Assembly: GCA_964344965.1 (NCBI GenBank)
Contig: CAYFPJ010000002.1
Location: 1,068-65,067 of the forward strand
Direction of reading: 5' to 3'
DNA length: 64,000 bases
DNA from: an uncultured Gammaproteobacteria bacterium
Lineage (GTDB): Bacteria > Patescibacteriota > Patescibacteriia > Magasanikbacterales > UBA922
Under the pieces are notes generated by a model that was not told the DNA's origin, ran no database searches, and saw only the letters and a list, made by a program, of their open reading frames with translations. This document shows positions 4,200-48,417 of the stretch, one piece after another; within the stretch, counting starts at the first letter, position 1; each line of letters starts with the position of its first letter. Made by a program: the position numbers and the translations under genes.

Positions 4200-4348
4200 A
4201 ATAAAAGTAAATTTGGTTTAAGTAAGACTTCATCGGGCCATCCCCGCAGCAAGCTGCGGGGTATTGGCAGAAAATCTTATTTCAACCAATGTTAGTTTTC
4301 ACTTTTTCGATGCAAGCATCGAGGAATAAAACCGCTTAAAGATTAAAA
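4200..4348 (+). repeat. 149-nt structured interspersed repeat, copy A
   Basis: Near-identical to the copies at 18577, 20057, 41992 and 47828. Begins AATAAAAGTAAATTTGG and ends CCGCTTAAAGATTAAAA. Contains the hairpins CCCCGCAG-CAAG-CTGCGGGG and CGATG-CAAG-CATCG. Confidence 0.9.
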
Positions 4349-10164: not shown

Positions 10165-10249
10165 GAATTTTGGTAGTTCAGCTAATATTTCAAAGTATAA
10201 TTATTATAGCACATAACATATAACCTGTAACATATAACTTTCCATTGTG

Positions 10250-10933
10250 TTATGGTTCAAATACTTCCTGTACTGGATATTTGCAAAATCCCTCATGGAT
10301 TCCGTCATTGCCAAATCTTTCCAACCAAGTAGGATTGCTGGAATATTTATACATAAAACTATTTTGCAACGAAGCAACTAACCTGTGTTTGAAAGGATTT
10401 TTCAAAATGTAATTGAAATGTTTCCAGAAGTCAGTAATGTTACGGATGCAGTAATCGTGATATTGGTACCATATTTTTCTGCCTGGTGTTTGGTCTAGTT
10501 TGTTTAACTCACGAGATGAGTCTTTGTGTAGCTTACGAACGAACTCAGTTAGAACATGTTTTTCTTGCTTTGGGACGAAATTCGCTGCGCTCATTTCATC
10601 ATTCCATTCTTTATAGGAAATATTCTCTCGTCTGATAGGAATGACAGATTGAGCCACAGCGAAATCTGTCCCAGTAGGCATATACTTTTTATTAATAGAT
10701 TGCGGCAGTGAAAAAAGTATATGGTAATGATTATCTAATAACACCCATGCATACATTCTGATACTAAACCTTTCAATCGATTGACGAAAAACATTTTGCC
10801 ACAATATCTTTTTATATTCTTTTTCAAAATACTTTTTCCCCTCCCAACACCGCGCCGTCAAAAAATAAGTATGTCCTCCATAAATATGATGCGGTCTATG
10901 TAAATTCCGATTTTGTGTTTGTGACAAGACCAT
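10250..10933 (-). CDS. IS200/IS605-type HUH tyrosine transposase, REP-associated (RAYT-like)
   Basis: HUH motif LLDNHYHILF and a C-terminal YILKNPFKHRLV...YKYSS block (cf. NPVKAGLV...W.YSS of RAYTs). No TnpB partner. Confidence 0.65.
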   Translation of the reverse strand: MVLSQTQNRNLHRPHHIYGGHTYFLTARCWEGKKYFEKEYKKILWQNVFRQSIERFSIRMYAWVLLDNHYHILFSLPQSINKKYMPTGTDFAVAQSVIPIRRENISYKEWNDEMSAANFVPKQEKHVLTEFVRKLHKDSSRELNKLDQTPGRKIWYQYHDYCIRNITDFWKHFNYILKNPFKHRLVASLQNSFMYKYSSNPTWLERFGNDGIHEGFCKYPVQEVFEP

Positions 10934-10954
10934 ACAAAAAATACAAAATTCGGA

Positions 10955-10985
10955 ATGACAAACGAAGCGCAGCGGAGTTTGTCAT
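10955..10985. repeat. perfect hairpin immediately upstream of the RAYT start
   Basis: ATGACAAAC-GAAGCGCAGCGGAG-GTTTGTCAT, a 9-bp stem. It overlaps the stop codon of the methyltransferase gene. Confidence 0.7.
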
Positions 10986-16245: not shown

Positions 16246-16752
16246 TTAAATGCTATGTGTTACGTGTTTTGTGTCTCGTGAATACTTACATCCACAATAA
16301 TTTTGTCGATAAATTCCTTTTTCCTTCACCATCTTTCTTACCTTTTCTTGTCTACCACCCTTTTTCCAGTCTTCTTTTAAAAAACCAATATTATATTTTT
16401 CCGCCAACCTCCTACAAATCCCCCCGATAATTTCCATTTTTTTGTTTCGTCCGCTAGTGAGAGTGGTAGAGAAAATATCAAAATTATTTTCTTTAGCATA
16501 CTGAGCAGATTGATTGAGACGCAGATAAAAACACTTTGGACAACGAAGCCCTCCCTCTGGCTGATCTTCAAAACCTTTTATAGCCTCATCCCACCTATTC
16601 ACATCATAATCAGCATCGACCATCTTCACTCCCCACTCATCACAAATACGTACCACTTCTTTTTTTCTTTTCAGATATTCTTCTATTGGATGAATGTTGG
16701 GATTATAAAAATAAACCGTCAGATCATACTGATCTTTTAGGTCTCGTGCCAA
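16246..16752 (-). CDS. queH: epoxyqueuosine reductase QueH (DUF208), lacking the N-terminal CCAPC segment
   Basis: The protein aligns with T. maritima QueH from VTVFFFNPNIHP onward (ours TVYFYNPNIHP). The GGLRCPKC, DIFSTTL and QNYCGC motifs are present. The ORF begins at a TTG, and in-frame stop codons lie upstream. Confidence 0.7.
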   Translation of the reverse strand: MARDLKDQYDLTVYFYNPNIHPIEEYLKRKKEVVRICDEWGVKMVDADYDVNRWDEAIKGFEDQPEGGLRCPKCFYLRLNQSAQYAKENNFDIFSTTLTSGRNKKMEIIGGICRRLAEKYNIGFLKEDWKKGGRQEKVRKMVKEKGIYRQNYCGCKYSRDTKHVTHSI

Positions 16753-17752
16753 TGTTATATGGCTTGTATTTATCTATTTTTATCCTCATCATCCTGTCAA
16801 TTTCATCATCCAGAGAAGAAGAATAATGTCTTCCATTCATTTTGTTATTACGATTGAGAAGCCACTTCATAGAGGAAGTTTCTCCATCGTCCGTTAGCGG
16901 GCTTTCCTGGTGTGCTTTTTGGGCAAATCTCTTTGCCCAGGTGCGTAAAGTCATAAACGGAATTTCCTTATTATATTCTGTTTTAGCGATTTTATGATAT
17001 TTTTTGGCAATATCTTGCTCACTGCGCCATTCCGCAGATGCCACTTCCTTTCCCATAGCAAGTATAATTATTTCTTTTGTCAATCTTGGACCACAATACC
17101 ATGCCATGCCTCTATTTTTATTACAATAGTACCTACCATACTCTTCAGAGAGAATACTATCTCTTTCTATTATTTCCTTTATCAATGAATGTATTGCCTG
17201 TTTATCATGAACTACTGATTTTTCTAATGGTTTCAAAAATCTAGAAATACCTACCAATAATCTAAATCCTTCTGGAGGTGAATCCTTATACTTCTCCATC
17301 TTATGTCCGACATCTTTAGGTAAATTTGCAAATACTTCTGCAAAGTCAGACCCATCATAAATGTCACCTGCCATTCTTTTAGATTGTCGTTCCAACAATT
17401 TTTTTATTGCAATAGCGTCTTTTTCACCAAACCAATCAACAAACAAACCAAAAAATCGTGGCCTCAAAATACCATCAGCAGTACACACTCTTGGATAAGA
17501 TTTCAAAATTTCTGCAAATTCAGGAACGCTAGACTGTCCAATTTCCGGATCGTTTTCAACAATCCTATCTACTAAACTAAAAATTTCAAAATCGGTCCTA
17601 ATTCCCTCCTCATTTAGACCCATGCCCTCCTCAACCTTATCTATATCAAAACCATCCAATCTTTTTTTATCTTCGTGTAGCGCATATACCGCACCCCTGT
17701 AAATATTTTCTGCTTCTGTGGCCATAAAATATTTTTTTAAAAATCTAAGCAA
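16724..17752 (-). CDS. hypothetical protein
   Basis: 342-aa ORF with no recognisable motif; overlaps queH by 29 nt. Confidence 0.35.
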   Translation of the reverse strand: MLRFLKKYFMATEAENIYRGAVYALHEDKKRLDGFDIDKVEEGMGLNEEGIRTDFEIFSLVDRIVENDPEIGQSSVPEFAEILKSYPRVCTADGILRPRFFGLFVDWFGEKDAIAIKKLLERQSKRMAGDIYDGSDFAEVFANLPKDVGHKMEKYKDSPPEGFRLLVGISRFLKPLEKSVVHDKQAIHSLIKEIIERDSILSEEYGRYYCNKNRGMAWYCGPRLTKEIIILAMGKEVASAEWRSEQDIAKKYHKIAKTEYNKEIPFMTLRTWAKRFAQKAHQESPLTDDGETSSMKWLLNRNNKMNGRHYSSSLDDEIDRMMRIKIDKYKPYNIGTRPKRSV

Positions 17753-17787
17753 ACCCCCACCTTCTCGTTTTTAAATCAAAGGTATGA

Positions 17788-17897
17788 ACCCCAGGGCAAG
17801 CCCTGGACCCTTTTTTCCGAGGCAAGCCTCGGGGAACCTGCCTGCCGGCAGGCAGGTTAAACCAACCCCTCGTCCCGTACCGAGGAACGAGGTCGGG
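17788..17897. repeat. cluster of four consecutive GC-rich hairpins (REP-like palindromes)
   Basis: CCAGGG-CAAG-CCCTGG, CCGAGG-CAAG-CCTCGG, CCTGCCTGCC/GGCAGGCAGG and CCTCGT...ACGAGG. The loops match the CAAG loops of the 149-nt repeat. Confidence 0.7.
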
Positions 17898-17972
17898 ATT
17901 AAAAATTATTCAATCAAGATACCAAAAAAATCTCTAATCATAAGTAAAACAAACCTTTACATATATCAAGAA

Positions 17973-19408
17973 TTAATAAAAATAATTTCTATCTTCTAAC
18001 TCTTCCGGCAAATAATCCTGCTCCACCTCTCCCCCAAAATCTGGATTATACTTATAATCTTTACCATATCCAATTTCCTTCATAAAGTCAGTCGGAGCAT
18101 TCCGGAGATGTAAAGGTACACCAAGATGTGAAGTATTCTTAGCATCTCTGGCCGCCCGACCATAAGCTTTGTAAAGTAAGTTTGATTTGGTCGACTTAGC
18201 ACAGTATACCACAGCCTGAGCAAGGTGGACGGTGCACTCAGGCATGCCGATCTTGTGCACTGCATCATACGCTGCGTTAGCTTGAATCATTGCTTCACTA
18301 TTGGCCATGCCGATATCTTCACAAGCGAAGCGAAGCACTCGTCTAGCCACATATAGCGGATCTGCTCCCCCTTCAAGCATCCGAGCAAGCCAATACAGCG
18401 AAGCATCTGCATCACTTCCCCGCATAGATTTATGCAAAGCTGAGATCAGATTGTAAAACTCCTCACCTTTTTTATCAAAAACTAAGTGAGTACGCTGTAA
18501 TGCTTCTTTTATATCGTCAACTGACAAGATAACGCCACCAGATTCACCCCCCCCCTATGAGGGGGAGTCGATCCCGAATAAAAGTAAATTTGGTTTAAGT
18601 AAGACTTCATCGGGCCATCCCCGCAGCAAGCTGCGGGGTATTGGCAGAAAATCTTATTTCAACCAATGTTAGTTTTCACTTTTTCGATGCAAGCATCGAG
18701 GAATAGAACCGCTTTAGATTCAATCGGGACGGAGGGGGTCTCACTGGAAGTCTTCCCAACTACGGCAAGTTCAATACCATTCAAAGCTACTCTCCCATCT
18801 TCCCCACTCAAACTTGCCAAAAATTCGATAGTCTCATTATCAATCTCGACATTATATTTCCCCAATCCTCTATCCTCATCCTCGAGAGCTTGTCTTATAA
18901 GCAGGACAATATCCTCATCACTAAGACTTTTCAAAATAAAAACTCGTGAACGTGAGAGAAGTGGACGGATGATTTCAAAAGAAGGATTTTCCGTAGTGGC
19001 TCCGATGAGTGTAACCACTCCTCTCTCAACATAAGGCAGTAATGCATCTTGCTGGGCCTTATTCCAACGATGAATCTCATCAATAAAAAGCACTGTCTTC
19101 TTATTTTCATTCTGTAACAATTCTGAAGCTTCCTTGACTGCTTTCATCAAATCTCGCTTACCGCTCTCTACTCCTGACAAAGAGACAAACTCTGAATTAG
19201 TTTGCTCAGCTATAATATTGGCGAGACTAGTCTTTCCTACCCCAGGCGGACCCCAAAAAATGATCGAAGATAATTGATCTTGCTCGACCATGCGTCTGAG
19301 TAATTTGCCTTTCCCAACAATTTCTTCTTGACCTACAAATTCATCAAAATTGCGAGGACGCATGCGGTCTGGGAGTGGTCTATTATTCTGTGGCTTTTTT
19401 TCTTTCAT
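17973..19408 (-). pseudogene. rarA: rarA/mgsA (recombination factor AAA+ ATPase) split into two ORFs (18659..19408 and 17973..18527) by an inserted copy of the 149-nt repeat
   Basis: The N-terminal ORF has the Walker A GPPGVGKTSLA and ends with repeat-encoded LDACIEKVKTNIG*. The C-terminal ORF starts at a TTG with ...FDKKGEEFYNLISALHKSMRGS..., which continues the RarA alignment with no residues missing. Confidence 0.7.
18577..18724 (+). repeat. 149-nt structured repeat, copy B (inside rarA)
   Basis: Identical over ~130 nt to the other copies, with a diverged 3' end. It is preceded by an extra C9-TATGA-G6 hairpin. Confidence 0.9.
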
Positions 19409-19418
19409 GAAAATACCT

Positions 19419-20090
19419 TTATCCTTCAGATTTATCTCTCAAATATCCTTCTATAATGGTGTCAGCTTTGGAGAGATTTATTGCTACCAAAACACGAGGA
19501 GGAGTATTGGATTCTAAATAAATCTGCTCTTCCAATGGAATTTTGTGTCCTTCACCTCCCATCAATCTCTCTTGAGCTTCCTTCAAAATTCTAGACATCG
19601 TTATATAAGTTATACCAGCGTATCTAGAACGGATATATTTAGGGCGAACAAAATTTTTATTATTAATCAAAAGACCAAGAATCGTCATCCGTGCAAGCGC
19701 ATCTTCTGCTAAATCTGGACTAAGATATACCTCTCTCCTCAATCTTTCTTTTGTATTGAACTTTTGTGTAAAATGTCTTGAACCATAATTCCGCTGATCT
19801 CCCTCGGGCTTACTTTTGTTACTTTCTTTCATTCTTGATACATTCTCTGCAATTTTCCTTTTATCTAGACCTGTTTTTCTCTGTATGGTTGTCAGAGACA
19901 AGCCATATCTTCCGTCTTCTGGGGGGTATAATCTTCCATCCTCACCTTCCACAGCTCCCAAAAAAATCAAAAATTGTTTTCGATCTTCTTGAATACGACT
20001 CTCAATCATTTCCAAAACCTTAGGACTATATTTGGCATCATATCTTCTATGAGGAAAATAAAAGTAAATTTGGTTTAAGTAAGACTTCAT
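19419..20090 (-). CDS. hypothetical protein with a possible HTH; the annotated start (MKSYLNQIYFY) is encoded by the repeat, and the true start is probably near 20009
   Basis: The first 11 codons lie inside repeat copy C. The segment LSLTTIQRKTGLDKRKIAENVSRM is HTH-like. Confidence 0.35.
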   Translation of the reverse strand: MKSYLNQIYFYFPHRRYDAKYSPKVLEMIESRIQEDRKQFLIFLGAVEGEDGRLYPPEDGRYGLSLTTIQRKTGLDKRKIAENVSRMKESNKSKPEGDQRNYGSRHFTQKFNTKERLRREVYLSPDLAEDALARMTILGLLINNKNFVRPKYIRSRYAGITYITMSRILKEAQERLMGGEGHKIPLEEQIYLESNTPPRVLVAINLSKADTIIEGYLRDKSEG

Positions 20091-20206
20091 CGGGCCATCC
20101 CCGCAGCAAGCTGCGGGGTATTGGCAGAAAATCTTATTTCAACCAATGTTAGTTTTCACTTTTTCGATGCAAGCATCGAGGAATAAAACCGCTTAAAGAT
20201 TTAAAA
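20057..20206 (+). repeat. 149-nt structured repeat, copy C (150 nt)
   Basis: Matches the other copies. It supplies the last 19 codons (TFKSLSGFIPRCLHRKSEN*) of the upstream ORF. Confidence 0.9.
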
Positions 20207-21429
20207 GTAAGATCCTCATCATTACTCACTCTCCCAACAACTTCCTCTATAAGGGTAGCATAAGGTTGGCCATACTTTAATTTAACATAATTATGCAACT
20301 TCATTTCCGTAAACCATTCATCATCTTTTTGTTTTATTTCCAAAAGTAATTCGACCACTTCTACACTATACAGCATCAAACTACGACCTCCAAGGTATGA
20401 TCCTGGTCGTTTAATCTGCTCATCTCTCATCCCCTCATCTCTAAGTCTATCCACCACACCAAGAAGAGAACTATTTATCCAATATTTAGATTTACCAACA
20501 ACAGCAGCAAGAGATCTATTCTTATCACCATCAATATCACCAATAATATACCAACCACCACCTGGACGCTCCATATTTTTAACAAGTTCAACTTCTGCAG
20601 GAACATCATTAAGTATTCTTTCGATTTCAGCCAGCCAGTCTTCCATGTTTGAAAAAGGAATTATTTCATGAGGATGTGGATATGTTTCAAATGAACGCAT
20701 AGTATACTTATCTGGAGTTTGACCTAGAAAATTCTCTATATCTTCCTCTTCAGTACCTGGATTGACAAAAACAATGTGAGTACCCTCACCGTGTAAATCA
20801 GAGACGAAAATTGACACTCCTTTGTCAGGGATAACAAACAAATCATACAAACCATCATAATCACGCACAGTTGATTCAATTTGTTTTTTTGCTCCACTTG
20901 ATAAATCTTCTTTTGATTTTGTTTTTGCACGCACAGAGACAACACCTAATCTTGTCAATAAAATATCAAGTGCTTCTTTTCTCTTATGAGTTTTCCTTTT
21001 CTTTTCCCTATCTTTCTCTCCTCCTTTACCAATTCCAAGTCTTCCTTCTCCAGTGCTAAGTAAAGGCCTGTCAATATATATTGTGTTCACGGCCCCAGTC
21101 ACAACTTCTCCCTCTGGATCAGTCAATTCTACTTCGTCAGAAGTAGAATTGAAAACTAAAGGAAATTCCTCTGCTAGACTTCTCGCCCGCTTTTCTAGGA
21201 TGCTTTCTATACTATTCATATCCTCAGGAGGAATGCCTAAGATGTCTGCAATATCACCTCTATTAAGTCCAGACTCTGTCAAAGCTTCTAATTCACTTGC
21301 AAGACATCCTCTCCAATATTCTACAGCTGAGATGGGAGCAGTCTCAAGACCAGCTTGCTTACCAGCATGTTCACGTAACTTCTTCACCATTATACGGTCA
21401 GCATGAGGTTCAAGATATTTTTTTGACAT
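20149..21429 (-). CDS. hypothetical protein, paralog of the 14019..15260 ORF; its C-terminal 19 aa are read from the repeat
   Basis: Shares the FVSDL-containing block with its paralog; no family assignment. Confidence 0.4.
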   Translation of the reverse strand: MSKKYLEPHADRIMVKKLREHAGKQAGLETAPISAVEYWRGCLASELEALTESGLNRGDIADILGIPPEDMNSIESILEKRARSLAEEFPLVFNSTSDEVELTDPEGEVVTGAVNTIYIDRPLLSTGEGRLGIGKGGEKDREKKRKTHKRKEALDILLTRLGVVSVRAKTKSKEDLSSGAKKQIESTVRDYDGLYDLFVIPDKGVSIFVSDLHGEGTHIVFVNPGTEEEDIENFLGQTPDKYTMRSFETYPHPHEIIPFSNMEDWLAEIERILNDVPAEVELVKNMERPGGGWYIIGDIDGDKNRSLAAVVGKSKYWINSSLLGVVDRLRDEGMRDEQIKRPGSYLGGRSLMLYSVEVVELLLEIKQKDDEWFTEMKLHNYVKLKYGQPYATLIEEVVGRVSNDEDLTFKSLSGFIPRCLHRKSEN

Positions 21430-25480: not shown

Positions 25481-25518
25481 ATGTACGAAATTACGAACGT
25501 TACGAAATTTGCGAAACG
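25481..25518 (-). repeat. TTTCGTA-type 8-9-bp tandem repeat array (4 units), oriented toward the 25034..25441 gene
   Basis: The minus strand reads TTTCGCAAA TTTCGTAACG TTCGTAA TTTCGTACAT. Confidence 0.7.
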
Positions 25519-25678: not shown

Positions 25679-28651
25679 CTACACCCTAAACTCACAAATA
25701 TCCCTAAAATCACATCTTCCACAAATAAATTTACTTGGCGTAGCTTCAAACTTTCGTTCGTGAATTTGCTCAATAGTTTTGGCCAATTTTCCTTTTAGCT
25801 TTTCCAGTTCTTTTTCTTTCCCGATGAATGATGTCTTTATATTATCATTTAAATAATAAAATGTTAACTTACTGGTCTCACCCACATGCTTATATTCTGG
25901 CAAAGTGCTAGCCACTATCTGATAAATCAAAAGTTGATCCTTCTCTTTACCAACTAATTTCTCTTTACTTTTTCCAGTCTTGTAATCAACAATTTCAAGA
26001 GTGCCGTCTTCCAGTTTGTCGACCCGATCAATACGGCCGGAAATTGTATAGTCCCCTACTTTTACCTTGAAACCACTTTCAAGAGAGATAGGTACATTCC
26101 AATTCCCTTCTTCAGAAGCATAAAAAACTTTTAGAATTTCTTTTCCTTTCTTATGATAATCTTCTCGCTGGCGTTTGCTCACATACCAGTCACTGATCCA
26201 CTTCTCCTCATATATTTGTAGAAGTTCTTCAAAAGACGGCACTTTGATATTGGAATCTATAAACTTATCAGCCGGTAGACCAAAAAGTGAATCCTGCTTC
26301 AAGCCATTTAATTCCTGAATCCGCTCATAAAATTTTTGCAAAGTATTGTGCATGGTCGAGCCAAAACTAAAGCTAGCACTCCCCTTGGTCGGAATTTTGA
26401 GGACATGCGCCAGCTTATACTGATACGGACAAGTCTGATAAGAACTAATCTGCGAATAAGAAAACCTCTTCGGCAAATCATAGATCACCTCACTTTCCTT
26501 TGTATCTTGAATATCCCTCTGTTGAAAAGATATGGTAACGGGTTCGTCGTTCGTCAGGAGCTTGTCCTGAGCTTGCCGAATGGATCGTTCGTCTCTCATT
26601 CCCAACTCCGCCACGAATCTACTTAATTTGGAAGAGCGTACCCCACCATAACTCTCAGCGCTCGTCAAAAAAAGTCTCTCCTTCGCCCTCGTCATCGCTA
26701 CATAAAACAGCCGTCTCTCTTCTTGATAATGATAGTCCCCTTCTGGCACAGTTTCACGAACAAGTTCTTCTGGCAGCTCAATATTGCCACCTTTGCGACG
26801 AGTAGGAAATCGCCCTTCCACACAGTTGACGACGAAAACATACTTGAATTCCAGACCCTTGGAGGCATGTACTGTCATAATGTTCACAGAGTCTGGTGTA
26901 TCGGTCGGCTGGTAGAGCTTGCCATCATCACCAGAAATGATAATTTGGTTATAAAAATCAACAAATCCAAAAACATTGGCATCCGGAATAGATTCTTGAT
27001 ATTTTTCTACAAATTCAAAAAACTGCTTGAGATGTCTGATCTCTCTTATCGTTTTTCTATCCCCATCTTCTTCTGTCTGCGTGAGGTGAGATAGATATCC
27101 ACTGTTTTCGAGAAACTCAATTAGTACTGTGGTTGGTTTCTCAAATCTGGCTCGCTTCATGCCATGGTGGATTAGTTCGATCAATTTATTACAAATTCCA
27201 ACCCCCTCCTCTGATAGCTTGAATTCTCGAGCCCGCTTCAGACCTTCGTAATATGGAATGCTTTTCTTTTTTGATAAGTACAAAATCTTCTGCATATCAT
27301 TTTCGCGCATTCCAAAAAATGGTAAACGAAGAAGGCGGTAGACTGCCACAGAATCATGAAAGTCAGCCAGCACTTTAAAAAAATTAAAGCAATCCATCAC
27401 AATCGGCTGGCGATACAATCCAGAAGAAGCCAAAAATTCGTATGGAATACCTGATTGTTCAAGGCCTTGGATAAACGGACTAGCATGACTATTGGCTCGG
27501 ACGAGGATAGCAACATCATCCCACACAAACTCTTTATCTTCTTTTTGCAATTTCAAAATTTCACTAACAACAGATCTGACTTCGCTTTCTAAATTAAGTT
27601 CATTAACATGCAAAACTGATGGTTGGGAACTATATTCTCCTGATTCTTTATTCCTAATTCCTGATTCTAGTCTCTTATCAATATCAAGCTTCACCTCAAG
27701 ACGATCCGGATTATTATTCTGAATAAGCTGGTAAGCAGAATCAAGGATCTTCTGATTGGAGCGATAATTTTCTGTTAGCACTATTTCTTTTCCTTTTGGA
27801 AAGTCATCTTTGAATCTAAGGATATTGGAAACACTGGCTCCACGAAAGGCATAAACAGACTGATCATCGTCCCCGACCACAGTGAGCTGACTATTGCCAG
27901 CCAGCAATTTTACCAGCTCATACTGAGCATAGTTGACGTCTTGAAATTCATCAACCAGAATATATTTAAATCTTTTTTGCAAACTTTCTAAAATTAATTT
28001 CCTTTTTTTGAGTAGTCCTACTGTATAAAAAATTAGATCGCCAAAGTCTAACGCATTATGCCTGAGCAGAAGCTGATTGTAGCTGTGATAAGCATTGGCG
28101 AGCTCTGCTATCTTGCTTTTCTCTTCTTCGGCATTGTCATGATCTAGTTGTAAATTTTTGGCATATTCCAGATATTCTGCCGGACTGATCAGCTCGTCTT
28201 TACATTTGGAAAAATGAGAGATAAGGGCATAGATATTACGACTGGGATTTCCAAGTGGGCGATAATAATCAAGGTTGAAATCATACAAATTTTCTTTCAT
28301 CAGAAGCCAGGCATCTGTCCCTGTCATTAGTTTGAACTGATTTGGTAAACCCACATCAAGACCATAATTCTCCAAAATATTTTGGCAAAAAACATGAAAA
28401 GTAGAAATCTGTAAATCTAGGTAACCAATATCAAGGAGCACATCAACCCGCTCCTGCATCTCTTCTGCTGCTTTGTCTGTAAAAGTAAGGGCGAGAATCT
28501 CTTCTGGTTTCACTCCTTTTTCCTTTACCAAATAACTAATCTTCTTGGTAATCACAGTCGTCTTCCCAGTCCCCGCTCCAGCAACAATAAGAAGAGGACC
28601 GCCGACATATTCGACGGCCTGTTTTTGTGATTTATTGAGTTTTTTTGTCAT
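25679..28651 (-). CDS. UvrD/PcrA-like superfamily-1 helicase fused to a C-terminal PD-(D/E)XK Cas4/AddB-like nuclease domain
   Basis: N-terminal helicase motifs (GAGTGKT, VDEFQD, TVHASKGLEF). The C-terminal region carries the nuclease motifs and a Cys cluster (CPYQYK...CGRCDFRDIC). Confidence 0.8.
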   Translation of the reverse strand: MTKKLNKSQKQAVEYVGGPLLIVAGAGTGKTTVITKKISYLVKEKGVKPEEILALTFTDKAAEEMQERVDVLLDIGYLDLQISTFHVFCQNILENYGLDVGLPNQFKLMTGTDAWLLMKENLYDFNLDYYRPLGNPSRNIYALISHFSKCKDELISPAEYLEYAKNLQLDHDNAEEEKSKIAELANAYHSYNQLLLRHNALDFGDLIFYTVGLLKKRKLILESLQKRFKYILVDEFQDVNYAQYELVKLLAGNSQLTVVGDDDQSVYAFRGASVSNILRFKDDFPKGKEIVLTENYRSNQKILDSAYQLIQNNNPDRLEVKLDIDKRLESGIRNKESGEYSSQPSVLHVNELNLESEVRSVVSEILKLQKEDKEFVWDDVAILVRANSHASPFIQGLEQSGIPYEFLASSGLYRQPIVMDCFNFFKVLADFHDSVAVYRLLRLPFFGMRENDMQKILYLSKKKSIPYYEGLKRAREFKLSEEGVGICNKLIELIHHGMKRARFEKPTTVLIEFLENSGYLSHLTQTEEDGDRKTIREIRHLKQFFEFVEKYQESIPDANVFGFVDFYNQIIISGDDGKLYQPTDTPDSVNIMTVHASKGLEFKYVFVVNCVEGRFPTRRKGGNIELPEELVRETVPEGDYHYQEERRLFYVAMTRAKERLFLTSAESYGGVRSSKLSRFVAELGMRDERSIRQAQDKLLTNDEPVTISFQQRDIQDTKESEVIYDLPKRFSYSQISSYQTCPYQYKLAHVLKIPTKGSASFSFGSTMHNTLQKFYERIQELNGLKQDSLFGLPADKFIDSNIKVPSFEELLQIYEEKWISDWYVSKRQREDYHKKGKEILKVFYASEEGNWNVPISLESGFKVKVGDYTISGRIDRVDKLEDGTLEIVDYKTGKSKEKLVGKEKDQLLIYQIVASTLPEYKHVGETSKLTFYYLNDNIKTSFIGKEKELEKLKGKLAKTIEQIHERKFEATPSKFICGRCDFRDICEFRV

Positions 28652-28656
28652 AAGTT

Positions 28657-28696
28657 ATGTGCGAAATTACGAAAGCTGCGAAATGTACGAAAAAAA
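28657..28696 (-). repeat. TTTCGTA-type tandem repeat array (4 units) ending 5 nt before the helicase-nuclease ATG
   Basis: The minus strand reads TTTCGTACA TTTCGCAGC TTTCGTAA TTTCGCACAT AACTT ATG. Confidence 0.7.
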
Positions 28697-28760
28697 CTTA
28701 ATCTATTCTATATAATCCTAGCACAATTATGTTGCCTTAACAATTCCAACAACAAACAAA

Positions 28761-28796
28761 TTTCGTAACTTTCGTACTGTTCGTAATTTCGCACAT
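28761..28796 (+). repeat. TTTCGTA-type tandem repeat array (4 units), upstream of the hup promoter
   Basis: TTTCGTAAC TTTCGTACTG TTCGTAA TTTCGCACAT. Confidence 0.7.
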
Positions 28797-28828
28797 AAAT
28801 CATCCTGTGGACAAATATTTTGGCTCTA

Positions 28829-29709: not shown

Positions 29710-29790
29710 TAATTACGTTCTGTATCACTATTTTAGATACGTTATTGACAAAATCAATAGTATATAAGATTGGAATTAAAAAAATGTTTT

Positions 29791-29818
29791 AGTGCTTAGG
29801 TGTTTAAGTGTTCAAGTG
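29791..29818. repeat. AGTGYTTAR octamer tandem repeats directly after the ftsI stop codon
   Basis: AGTGCTTAGG TGTTTAAG TGTTCAAG TG; as RNA this reads CACUUGAACACUUAAACACCUAAGCACU and is G-poor. Confidence 0.7.
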
Positions 29819-29823
29819 AAAAA

Positions 29824-35835: not shown

Positions 35836-35903
35836 ATTTCAAAATACACCAATTAAGCCAGAGCAGTTAACTACCATATGAGAGGTAAATAATTCCAATT
35901 CAA

Positions 35904-35957
35904 AAGTGTTTAAGTGTTTAAGTGTTTAAGTGCTAAAGTGCTAAAGTGCTAAAGTGC
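35904..35957. repeat. AGTGYTTAA/AGTGCTAAA octamer tandem repeats (3+3 units) directly after the epimerase stop codon
   Basis: (AGTGTTTA)x3 (AGTGCTAA)x3 AGTGCC; as RNA this is (CACUUUAG)x3 (CACUUAAA)x3 and is G-poor. Confidence 0.8.
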
Positions 35958-35962
35958 CAAAA

Positions 35963-41991: not shown

Positions 41992-42140
41992 AATAAAAGT
42001 AAATTTGGTTTAAGTAAGACTTCATCGGGCCATCCCCGCAGCAAGCTGCGGGGTATTGGCAGAAAATCTTATTTCAACCAATGTTAGTTTTCACTTTTTC
42101 GATGCAAGCATCGAGGAATAAAACCGCTTAAAGATTAAAA
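41992..42140 (+). repeat. 149-nt structured repeat, copy D
   Basis: Full-length match to the other copies; lies between convergent genes. Confidence 0.9.
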
Positions 42141-47118: not shown

Positions 47119-47259
47119 ATGACTACCGAACGTGAAGAGAAACAATGTCCAATTTGTGGAGCTCCAGAAAGAGGCTGCAATTGCATAAAAGAAATTGAAA
47201 AAAAGGCTTTGATGCAAATTTGGTCATTGGTGAAATCCCAAATCATGAAAAACTAGCCA
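47119..47259 (+). CDS. possible small zinc-ribbon-like ORF (46 aa)
   Basis: MTTEREEKQCPICGAPERGCNCIKEIEKK... Absent from the track because it is under 60 aa. Overlaps the next ORF in another frame. Confidence 0.2.
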
Positions 47260-47849
47260 CACAAATTGCTACTTTCATGGATACTGATGCCACTGAACCA
47301 AGTGAGGGTAATATCAGAGAAGGATGGACCTCTGACGCACATTTGCGCAAATTAGAAAGTGTAGTAATGCACGAAAACCACCAAAACCAGACTTTTGCTG
47401 ATATTGCAGAAAATGCTGGAGAAAGAAGTAAAAGCCCTGCTGTAAAAATTCTTCTGAAAATAGGCGGACAAATTAACGGATTGAGGCGCATGACCGATAA
47501 AGAACCGATCAAAGACGAAGTTGACAAACTAATCAGAGAGGCCGCAGAGGAAATTGATCAGCTGGAGGATGGAACTAAAAAAGAACGCCTAGACTCACTG
47601 TTGGATTATAATGCTGGTGAGTGGAATAGAGTTATGGGAAATTATGACCTGGCTGCTGAATTGAAAAAACGCTCTGCAACCAAAGCCGAGACAAGCGGGG
47701 ATAGAGTAGGTGCCTCTATCGGGTATGTCGGTGAAAGTGTTCAGAAAGTGAATGAAGCTTTGGTAAATGGTGACCAAACAGAAATAGCTGCGAATCTAGA
47801 AGAAATGATTAGTCGTTCTGATCATCTAATAAAAGTAAATTTGGTTTAA
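47220..47849 (+). CDS. hypothetical protein (TTG start in the track; the last 6 codons, IKVNLV*, come from the repeat)
   Basis: ORF with higher GC than its neighbours; no motif. Confidence 0.35.
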   Translation: MVIGEIPNHEKLATQIATFMDTDATEPSEGNIREGWTSDAHLRKLESVVMHENHQNQTFADIAENAGERSKSPAVKILLKIGGQINGLRRMTDKEPIKDEVDKLIREAAEEIDQLEDGTKKERLDSLLDYNAGEWNRVMGNYDLAAELKKRSATKAETSGDRVGASIGYVGESVQKVNEALVNGDQTEIAANLEEMISRSDHLIKVNLV

Positions 47850-47976
47850 GTAAGACTTCATCGGGCCATCCCCGCAGCAAGCTGCGGGGTATTGGCAGAA
47901 AATCTTATTTCAACCAATGTTAGTTTTCACTTTTTCGATGCAAGCATCGAGGAATAAAACCGCTTAAAGATTAAAA
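47828..47976 (+). repeat. 149-nt structured repeat, copy E
   Basis: Full-length match; separates two GC-richer ORFs. Confidence 0.9.
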
Positions 47977-48024
47977 GAATGCACTGGAGAAACTTATGAT
48001 GAGACCCGCTGGAAATATCTAAAC

Positions 48025-48417
48025 ATGCCAGCCCATGTCCTGCTAGCTCATGTTTGGGCTAATGCTCCGCTAGAGGATACTGATCGTTTTGGAGACCTGC
48101 TCCGTGAATATAGCAACATAGATCCTGCAGTGGCAGAAAGTCATAAGCATGATATAACTGCCTTTGCAGCTTGTGAAGCTTGGTTGCAAAATGATACAAC
48201 AAGGGCCAAGAAGCTAGCTGAAGAAGTACTGGTAGCAGATCCAACTCCACACGAACAGAGCACCACAACTGCCAAACTAATCCTGGCAAGGGTTGTTGCT
48301 GGGGAAGGCGATACCACTAGAGCGAAAAATCTTCTAGAGGAGATATCTGCACCTGGGCACTACATGCACCAAGTACGAACTATTGCCGAGCGTGAACTGG
48401 CTGACTTGGGAAATTAA
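48025..48417 (+). CDS. hypothetical protein with an internal repeat (TTRAKKLAEE / TTRAKNLLEE)
   Basis: ORF followed by a terminator. Confidence 0.35.
   Translation: MPAHVLLAHVWANAPLEDTDRFGDLLREYSNIDPAVAESHKHDITAFAACEAWLQNDTTRAKKLAEEVLVADPTPHEQSTTTAKLILARVVAGEGDTTRAKNLLEEISAPGHYMHQVRTIAERELADLGN

Follow-up and report, generated by a model that had tools for sequence, protein, structure and literature searches.

The stretch of DNA analysed here (the window, 64 kb) carries on its minus strand two neighboring open reading frames that together encode RarA. They are separated by a gene-less repeat and by a short GC-rich segment in the linker of the protein. The following features make up the locus.

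18659-19408, minus strand: N-terminal rarA reading frame (249 aa), with AAA/RuvB_N by Pfam
18718..19408, minus strand: rarA's own N-terminal coding sequence (AAA+ module and beginning of the lid), up to and including the target ATTGAAT (18718-18724)
18725..18739, minus strand: left part of an older GC-rich linker insert, ACCCCCTCCGTCCCG, read as TPSVP, assigned by homology to the insert of relatives
18577..18717, minus strand: rarA copy of the gene-less element, 141 nt
18528..18576, minus strand: right part of the older GC-rich linker insert, CGGGATCGAC TCCCCC-TCATA-GGGGGGGGG TGAATCTGGTGGCGTTATC, containing a tract of nine G (G9)
18509..18610, minus strand: 33-codon reading frame from the ATG of the element, MKSYLNQIYFYSGSTPPHRGGVNLVALSCQLTI followed by a stop, in the native rarA frame up to G9
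17973..18527, minus strand: C-terminal rarA reading frame (184 aa; end of the lid and MgsA_C by Pfam)

As called, the N-terminal reading frame reaches 18659 by way of 19 codons and a stop supplied by the inserted element. The sole possible start of the C-terminal reading frame is the TTG at 18527, with GGTGG 7 nt upstream. Neither half contains an internal stop, and the lid domain AAA_assoc_2 is divided between them at profile positions 40/48 (Pfam). A preliminary description of this DNA had placed the two half genes at 18659..19408 and 17973..18527 and had stated that essentially no residues are missing at their junction. Both statements were confirmed: Pfam domains could be placed on either half, and the joined protein could be aligned gap-free with 11 full-length RarA proteins of Magasanikbacteria at 74-80% identity.

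A search with the joined protein returned RarA of Candidatus Magasanikbacteria and Patescibacteria. Each of the best 120 homologues is a single protein of 397-468 aa in which both AAA and MgsA_C are present (top identity 80%), and in the closest relative (locus L122), which shows the gene order NUDIX - rarA - QueH, rarA is one gene. The comparison of orthologous rarA loci suggested in the preliminary description thus yielded uninterrupted genes, indicating that rarA was interrupted here and ruling out an ancestrally split gene. Compared with the nearest relative, dN/dS is 0.085 and 0.03 for the two halves, but because dS is saturated these values reflect ancient constraint only and are uninformative on the time since insertion. 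The notion that both halves look under coding constraint, with no further stops or frameshifts, holds for the lack of internal stops and frameshifts in either half; the constraint is read from a saturated comparison.

The two genes flanking rarA in the window (19419-21429 and 16724-17752, both minus strand) have no counterpart in the NUDIX-rarA-QueH locus of the closest relative. In the gap that separates the rarA stop from the next gene, three consecutive GC-rich hairpins are found at 17816-17897 (82 nt, -45 kcal/mol). The third of these, TTCCCCGAGG-CTTG-CCTCGG, resembles IS200-type left-end hairpins and is present as a single copy in the window.

The repeat between the rarA halves occurs five times in the window, always on the minus strand. 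Apart from the rarA copy, all copies are 100% identical over 142 nt:

4200..4341, minus strand: copy splitting an ATP-grasp (glutathionylspermidine-synthase-like) gene into 4509 to 4342 and 4199 to 2961, based on homologues and an empty site
20057..20198, minus strand: copy between the reading frames 21429 to 20199 and 20056 to 19419, which are fused in frame on its removal
41992..42133, minus strand: intergenic copy between convergent epimerase and sugar transferase genes
47828..47969, minus strand: copy splitting a plus-strand gene (47220-47827 and 47970-48417), whose homologues are continuous

All five copies lie directly 3′ of the motif TT[T/A/G]AAT (TTTAAT three times, TTAAAT once, and TTGAAT once, the latter at the rarA copy), which is nearly equally frequent on both strands of the window (92 vs 95). 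The preliminary description had assigned 149 nt to the repeat and had counted TTTTAAT as part of it. The mobile unit in rarA instead comprises 141 nt (18577-18717), and the first 7 nt of the longer version, ATTGAAT (18718-18724), are the host target; TTTTAAT is likewise host sequence.

The rarA copy differs from the four identical copies at three positions, which all fall into its first 13 nt. We estimate the chance of such a clustering under uniform mutation at ~0.001, and random decay does not explain it; the left end of this copy may be a distinct variant, or it may have suffered damage that immobilizes the copy. At 18705-18717, the left end reads CTAAAGCGGTTCT in rarA and CTTTAAGCGGTTTT in the four identical copies. 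Covariation of the altered end with the TTGAAT target was considered as well and is needless, since one of the identical copies uses TTAAAT. No decayed copies were found in the window.

For the ATP-grasp gene, Pfam alone gave no proof that the copy at 4200-4341 splits a gene, which was instead provided by an exhaustive protein search. Homologues match the downstream reading frame from its first residues and possess ~55 extra N-terminal residues, which align to a mini-ORF upstream of the copy, and the homologues P0121-P0124 align across the junction KYFN/GRFIAGG (the slash marks the junction). In an 83%-identical relative (L132), the gene is uninterrupted and reads ...TACTTCAAT/GGTCGATTC..., with the empty site ...TTCAAT/GGT.... 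In the window, the left flank ends with ...TATTTTAAT and the right flank begins with GGTAGATTC..., so that the empty site of the relative equals the two flanks base for base, with zero duplication and zero loss.

Exact deletion of 142 nt restores a single reading frame at three sites other than rarA. The conserved gene at 47828-47969, to which the element is antisense, has two homologues (35% and 32% identity, 97-98% coverage) that cross the junction uninterrupted. At 20057-20198 the host is a 622-aa orphan with no homologue but itself among 5.8 billion proteins, and the gene split at this site is therefore a presumptive one. Taken together, four of the five copies are located inside reading frames, three in sense and one in antisense orientation. 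Because 90% of the window is coding, with 80% of the coding sequence on the minus strand, this proportion is what insertion without selection against genic sites predicts. An exact 56-mer of the repeat gave zero matches in GTDB species genomes. Matches to a left-end 23-mer in JGI metagenomes and to an 18-mer in viral contigs lay inside GC-rich coding sequence and were rejected as chance.

The preliminary description had also included a ~48-nt hairpin segment in the insertion. This segment and the 22 nt upstream of the element (ACCCCCTCCGTCCCGATTGAAT, the last seven of which are the ATTGAAT target) form a GC-rich palindromic linker insert with homologous, in-frame counterparts in the RarA proteins of relatives. 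The insert (53 nt in the window) is older than the transposon and separate from it. Several Magasanikbacteria RarA proteins reach 449-468 aa because they contain ~50 extra residues at exactly the same linker. In their DNA (L128:1501-2850 and L129:1501-2907), a GC-rich element of ~150 nt, with inverted ends of ~40 nt and a folding energy of ~-75 kcal/mol, is translated in frame within the lid linker as EFPSLVGKGQGRVS...ETPSQPPPIRVRS; its right end, GAGACCCCCTCCCAGCCTCCCCCTATAAGGG..., encodes ETPSQPPPIR. Without the transposon (^), the sequence of the window is GAGACCCCCTCC-GTCCCGATTGAAT^CGGGATCGAC-TCCCCCTCATAGGGGGGGGG and aligns to this right end, compared with which it has an extra 19-nt perfect hairpin, TCCCGAT-TGA-ATCGGGA. 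The transposon sits inside this hairpin, after its TTGAAT. Palindromic repeats that reside in frame within coding regions are known as Rickettsia palindromic elements. The older linker is comparable to them as a palindrome at a permissive surface loop that is in frame in relatives, but it differs in sequence family and host, and the window keeps only a 53-nt remnant that is one base out of frame.

This frame offset can be traced within the linker. The upstream part is read in the frame of the N-terminal half, as in the relatives, and the conserved downstream codons (GTT..TTG...GAC GAT AT) are in the frame of the C-terminal half. The stretch between the two measures 23 nt where a multiple of three is needed, and an exact 141-nt deletion therefore leaves rarA one base out of frame, with a stop after ...PPHRGGVNLVALSCQLTI. 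The G9 tract (18547-18555) is the most evident site for the missing base, and addition of one G to it yields an uninterrupted 431-aa RarA.

These frames bear on the claim that rarA is cleanly bisected by ~197 nt with a length of 2 mod 3. Both figures are correct, but the 197-nt junction is in frame only because the older linker segment is removed along with the transposon; the claim holds as arithmetic, whereas it merges two segments that differ in age, and removal of the 141-nt element alone leaves a frameshift. An intervening sequence that is removed at the RNA level like an intron, so that full-length RarA is made, would profit from the in-frame, gap-free junction left by the 197-nt span, from the strong folding of the insert (z = -4.8), and from the pairing of its flanks TCCCGAT/ATCGGGA, which brings the insert ends together. 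These flanks, however, are the pre-existing hairpin of the older linker insert. Moreover, the boundaries of the other copies enclose exactly 142 nt, and when the corresponding unit is taken out of rarA the frameshift remains; an identical copy lies antisense in a conserved gene; and the element (CUUUAAG...UUAUU) has neither the group II ends GUGYG...AY nor a terminal G as in group I. Rfam searches at the gathering score and at E ≤ 10 returned nothing but two tRNAs, with no intron or ribozyme in 17700-18900. Repair at the RNA level is thus argued against by the antisense copy and the residual frameshift, and we consider it highly improbable. Of the two possibilities offered in the preliminary description, pseudogenization or removal from the RNA, it is insertional disruption by a mobile repeat that is supported.

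The same observations (no Rfam core at E ≤ 10, the antisense copy, and the frameshift after removal) led us to reject self-splicing introns of group I, group II, or the IStron type. IStrons are group I introns fused to an IS200/IS605-type element. The repeat resembles them in its genic insertion beside a short target motif and in its transposition chemistry, but it lacks a group I core, one copy is antisense, and precise removal leaves rarA unrestored. Translational bypass was dropped in view of the gap of 141-197 nt, the antisense copy, and the N-terminal frame, which extends into the element by 19 codons.

Alternatively, the two halves could be functional as a two-piece RarA, in which a truncated AAA+ N-terminal half associates with an MgsA_C half (the oligomerisation domain) made from the TTG at 18527. 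The latter would be translated perhaps by termination-reinitiation after the 33-codon reading frame that starts at the ATG of the element, since the stop of this frame at 18509 overlaps the TTG at 18527 with its upstream GGTGG. In agreement with this idea, both halves are free of stops and frameshifts, the split is located in a linker where relatives accommodate insertions of ~50 aa, and at the copy at 20057-20198 the ATG of the element is in frame with the entire downstream half. Such a translational restart is not general to the copies, however, because the frame of this ATG stops after 12 codons at 4200-4341 and the element is antisense at 47828-47969. In addition, the split falls inside the AAA_assoc_2 lid domain, 0 of the 120 best homologues are split, the start signal of the C-terminal half is weak, and with saturated dS the dN/dS values attest to ancient constraint only. 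We therefore regard a two-piece RarA as unlikely.

The arrangement of the locus was compared with independent assemblies, which also bears on sequencing error as a cause of the split, a caveat raised in the preliminary description. MEGAHIT contigs of ENA sample ERZ930061 reproduce both the N-half/repeat and the repeat/C-half junction of rarA, and a contig from a different run (ERR2281805) contains the insertion at 47828-47969 and differs by a single SNP in the flanking gene. An artefact, such as a misjoin caused by the repeat or an error in a homopolymer, might be suspected because short-read contigs break inside the repeat and G9 is a homopolymer. The joins across the repeat are nevertheless correct, since both flanks of each copy stem from the same gene, and with the junctions recurring in independent contigs and in a second sample, an artefact is extremely improbable as an explanation of the locus. 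Only the length of G9 is still open to error: it could be an assembly error, and a MEGAHIT contig from the ERR2281801 assembly also has G9. Empty-site alleles of the interrupted genes were absent from the protein collections searched, and the insertions appear fixed in the sampled population.

The element contains no ORF. It consists of two CUUG-loop hairpins, a left-end hairpin (TCGATG-CTTG-CATCGA) and a long imperfect hairpin of 100 nt with the tip CCCCGCAG-CTTG-CTGCGGGG, and overall forms one long imperfect palindrome. Its ends, CTTTAAGC... and ...CTTTTATT, are not mutual inverted copies. Stops in all frames are present at its 5′ end, and an SD-like GGGGA followed by an ATG is directed outward across its 3′ end. 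Between the GC hairpin and the right end there are 42 nt, and the foot of the 100-nt imperfect hairpin lies 3 nt from this end.

The second hairpin contains a 20-nt CUUG hairpin, CCCCGCAGCTTGCTGCGGGG, that we found at more than 118 loci in GTDB species genomes of many bacterial and archaeal phyla, whereas about 1-17 occurrences of this exact 20-mer are expected by chance (estimate). In the full-length elements examined, this hairpin is followed by 9 nt ending in TTCATT (hairpin ~9-10 nt from the right end). Most of these loci (L002-L119) are ~150-nt two-hairpin elements that end 9 nt past the hairpin in TTCATT. Such elements from Nitrospira and Deltaproteobacteria MAGs are 75-90% identical to each other and are not represented by an Rfam family.

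At four loci and in one contig of a viral collection, CCCCGCAGCTTGCTGCGGGG or a near-identical copy flanks a gene for a protein of ~150 aa. A scan of three of the four gene products gave matches to Pfam Y1_Tnp, the IS200-like transposase, with E values of 1e-33 to 1e-40. The hairpin is positioned at the left end, the right end, or both beside the Y1_Tnp genes (L033, L036, L069, L105, and L127). Among the proteins encoded beside the 118 hairpin loci, the Y1 transposase (four loci) is the only recurrent one, with no TnpB or other partner. A CRISPR repeat, of which the hairpin and GGGGATGGCCCG are reminiscent (type I-E), was rejected, as the 118 loci show a single hairpin, no array, and contexts of IS200-like ends. 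A literature search for the hairpin sequence returned nothing. GC skew has a single sign across the window, and the top strand of the element is the G-rich strand; going by this skew, it is presumably the lagging-strand template.

On insertion, the left end of an IS200/IS605 element invariably comes to lie 3′ of a tetra- or pentanucleotide specific to that element (PMC5027513), and instead of terminal inverted repeats, members of the family contain sub-terminal imperfect palindromes that are recognized by the Y1 transposase (PMC3597680). Their excision regenerates the original sequence and leaves scarless donor joints (PMC10055086). Hairpins, a fixed motif, and the lack of a duplication are hallmarks of this "peel-and-paste" transposition (PMC3597680, PMC5027513, PMC10055086). 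The family includes gene-less elements, termed PATEs, that are mobilized in trans by TnpA (PMC10055086; the term is also listed for PMC3119063). The repeat described here shows scarless insertion, a fixed 5′ motif, CUUG hairpins, and one strand orientation. We conclude that it is a non-autonomous, PATE-type element of the IS200/IS605 family, with the mechanism and the identity of its transposase deduced from these features. It is a new member of this type, while the kind of event is already known. Like PATEs, it is ~140 nt long without an ORF, has hairpins rather than terminal inverted repeats, a fixed motif 5′ and no duplication, keeps to a single strand orientation irrespective of how the host gene is oriented, and bears a hairpin identical to those flanking IS200-type tnpA genes. 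It differs from PATEs in the distance of 42 nt between its strong hairpin and the right end, in a body formed by a single long imperfect palindrome, in the location of four of five copies within reading frames, in its host, a candidate-phyla-radiation bacterium, and in a transposase that is predicted to be encoded elsewhere. The 42-nt distance, in place of the ~9-10 nt of the full-length elements examined, is a point against the assignment, although the foot of the long hairpin reaches to within 3 nt of the end.

A further point against it is that no IS200-type tnpA is encoded in the 64-kb window. The only Y1 (HUH) transposase-family gene in it, identified by profile matches, is of the RAYT type:

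10250..10933, minus strand: RAYT-like gene (NCBIfam REP_Tyr_transpos 78.1 bits, cut-off 80; Pfam Y1_Tnp 24.2, cut-off 23)

Its product is no more than a candidate trans-acting enzyme for the repeat, since the flanks of the gene (10165-10249 and 10934-10981) carry other palindromes and not the hairpins of the repeat. The HUH and Tyr motifs of the RAYT-like protein are separated by ~40 extra residues (10571-10673). These coincide with a 17-nt inverted repeat pair at 69-nt spacing and are possibly a palindromic element read in frame. Related palindromes with GTCATTCC are found just upstream of the gene, at 10952-10983.

REPINs are REP doublets associated with a domesticated Y1 transposase, the RAYT (PMC3333891, PMC3479197). 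The repeat shares with this system a long hairpin of two imperfect inverted arms and the presence of a RAYT-like gene in the window. In contrast to REPIN/RAYT systems, the flanks of the RAYT-like gene bear different palindromes, and the copies are mostly intragenic and identical, which points to a recent burst. REPINs, by comparison, nearly always lie outside genes, on either side of their RAYT gene. Mobilization of the repeat as a REPIN was therefore rejected, as the RAYT flanks lack copies of it and four of five copies are intragenic. A classical MITE of a DDE transposon was rejected as well, because terminal inverted repeats are lacking and no copy shows a target-site duplication.

Based on these results, we propose the following course of events. 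A Y1 HUH transposase encoded elsewhere would recognize the hairpins of the element on one DNA strand and excise that strand as a circle. The circle would then be pasted 3′ of TT[T/A/G]AAT in single-stranded DNA at a replication fork, without duplication or loss. One copy landed in the loop of the small hairpin in the already expanded, GC-rich lid linker of rarA, where it ended the N-terminal frame after 19 foreign codons. Independently, the linker has a 1-nt frame offset at its G9 tract, with both halves of the gene otherwise undecayed. Altogether, it is quite probable that rarA has suffered a recent insertional disruption by a PATE-type IS200/IS605 element nested in an older linker insert, in addition to a homopolymer frameshift. 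Most likely, rarA is thus a pseudogene of recent origin that carries two lesions, provided that G9 does not stem from an assembly error, and RarA function has presumably been lost. Because the rarA halves are undecayed and four disrupted genes are apparently fixed, tolerance or even a function of the split genes is possible.

Another reading considered is a reversible, phase-variable switch, in which scarless Y1 excision and slippage from G9 to G10 regenerate an intact rarA in part of the population. The rarA donor joint would then read ...GATTGAAT/CGGGATC..., that is, ...CCCGATTGAAT/CGGGATCGAC.... Excision of IS200/IS605 elements regenerates the original sequence (PMC10055086), the insertion described here is scarless, and one extra G gives the full 431-aa reading frame with a linker like that of relatives. 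On the other hand, two independent events are required, the mutations within the first 13 nt at the left end of the rarA copy could prevent its excision, and 5.8 billion proteins include neither an empty-site nor a full-length allele above 80% identity. We therefore hold such a switch to be very unlikely. More generally, the insertions could represent a maintained reversible state, in which the element would persist within genes and now and then undergo scarless excision by a Y1 transposase, its retention perhaps being enforced by a guide RNA encoded in the element together with a TnpB-like nuclease encoded elsewhere; this we rate as very unlikely as well. If it were true together with slippage at G9, rarA and its three neighbors would be population-level on/off switches in a bacterium with a reduced genome.

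The window also contains repeats of other kinds. An 8-nt unit, AGTGYTTA, forms short arrays at 29783-29823 and 35897-35961, 6 kb apart. Repeats of ACGAAA / TTTCGTA units are located at 25481-25516 and 28650-28803; among them, an inverted pair of 43 nt, separated by a spacer of 68 nt, precedes a UvrD-like helicase gene.

The preferred reading of rarA as a gene disrupted by a PATE-type element removes a candidate bacterial protein-gene intron from consideration. In its place stands what appears to be a recent burst of a derivative of single-strand transposons in the genome of a candidate-phyla-radiation bacterium, with genes struck as often as expected in the absence of selection. Interrupted genes are currently called as two separate proteins, one for either half, and the exact boundaries, target motif, and empty site determined here can be used to annotate such elements and the resulting pseudogenes in Patescibacteria assemblies. 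In the Magasanikbacteria clade, palindromic insertions have entered the lid linker of RarA repeatedly, which marks this linker as a permissive site.
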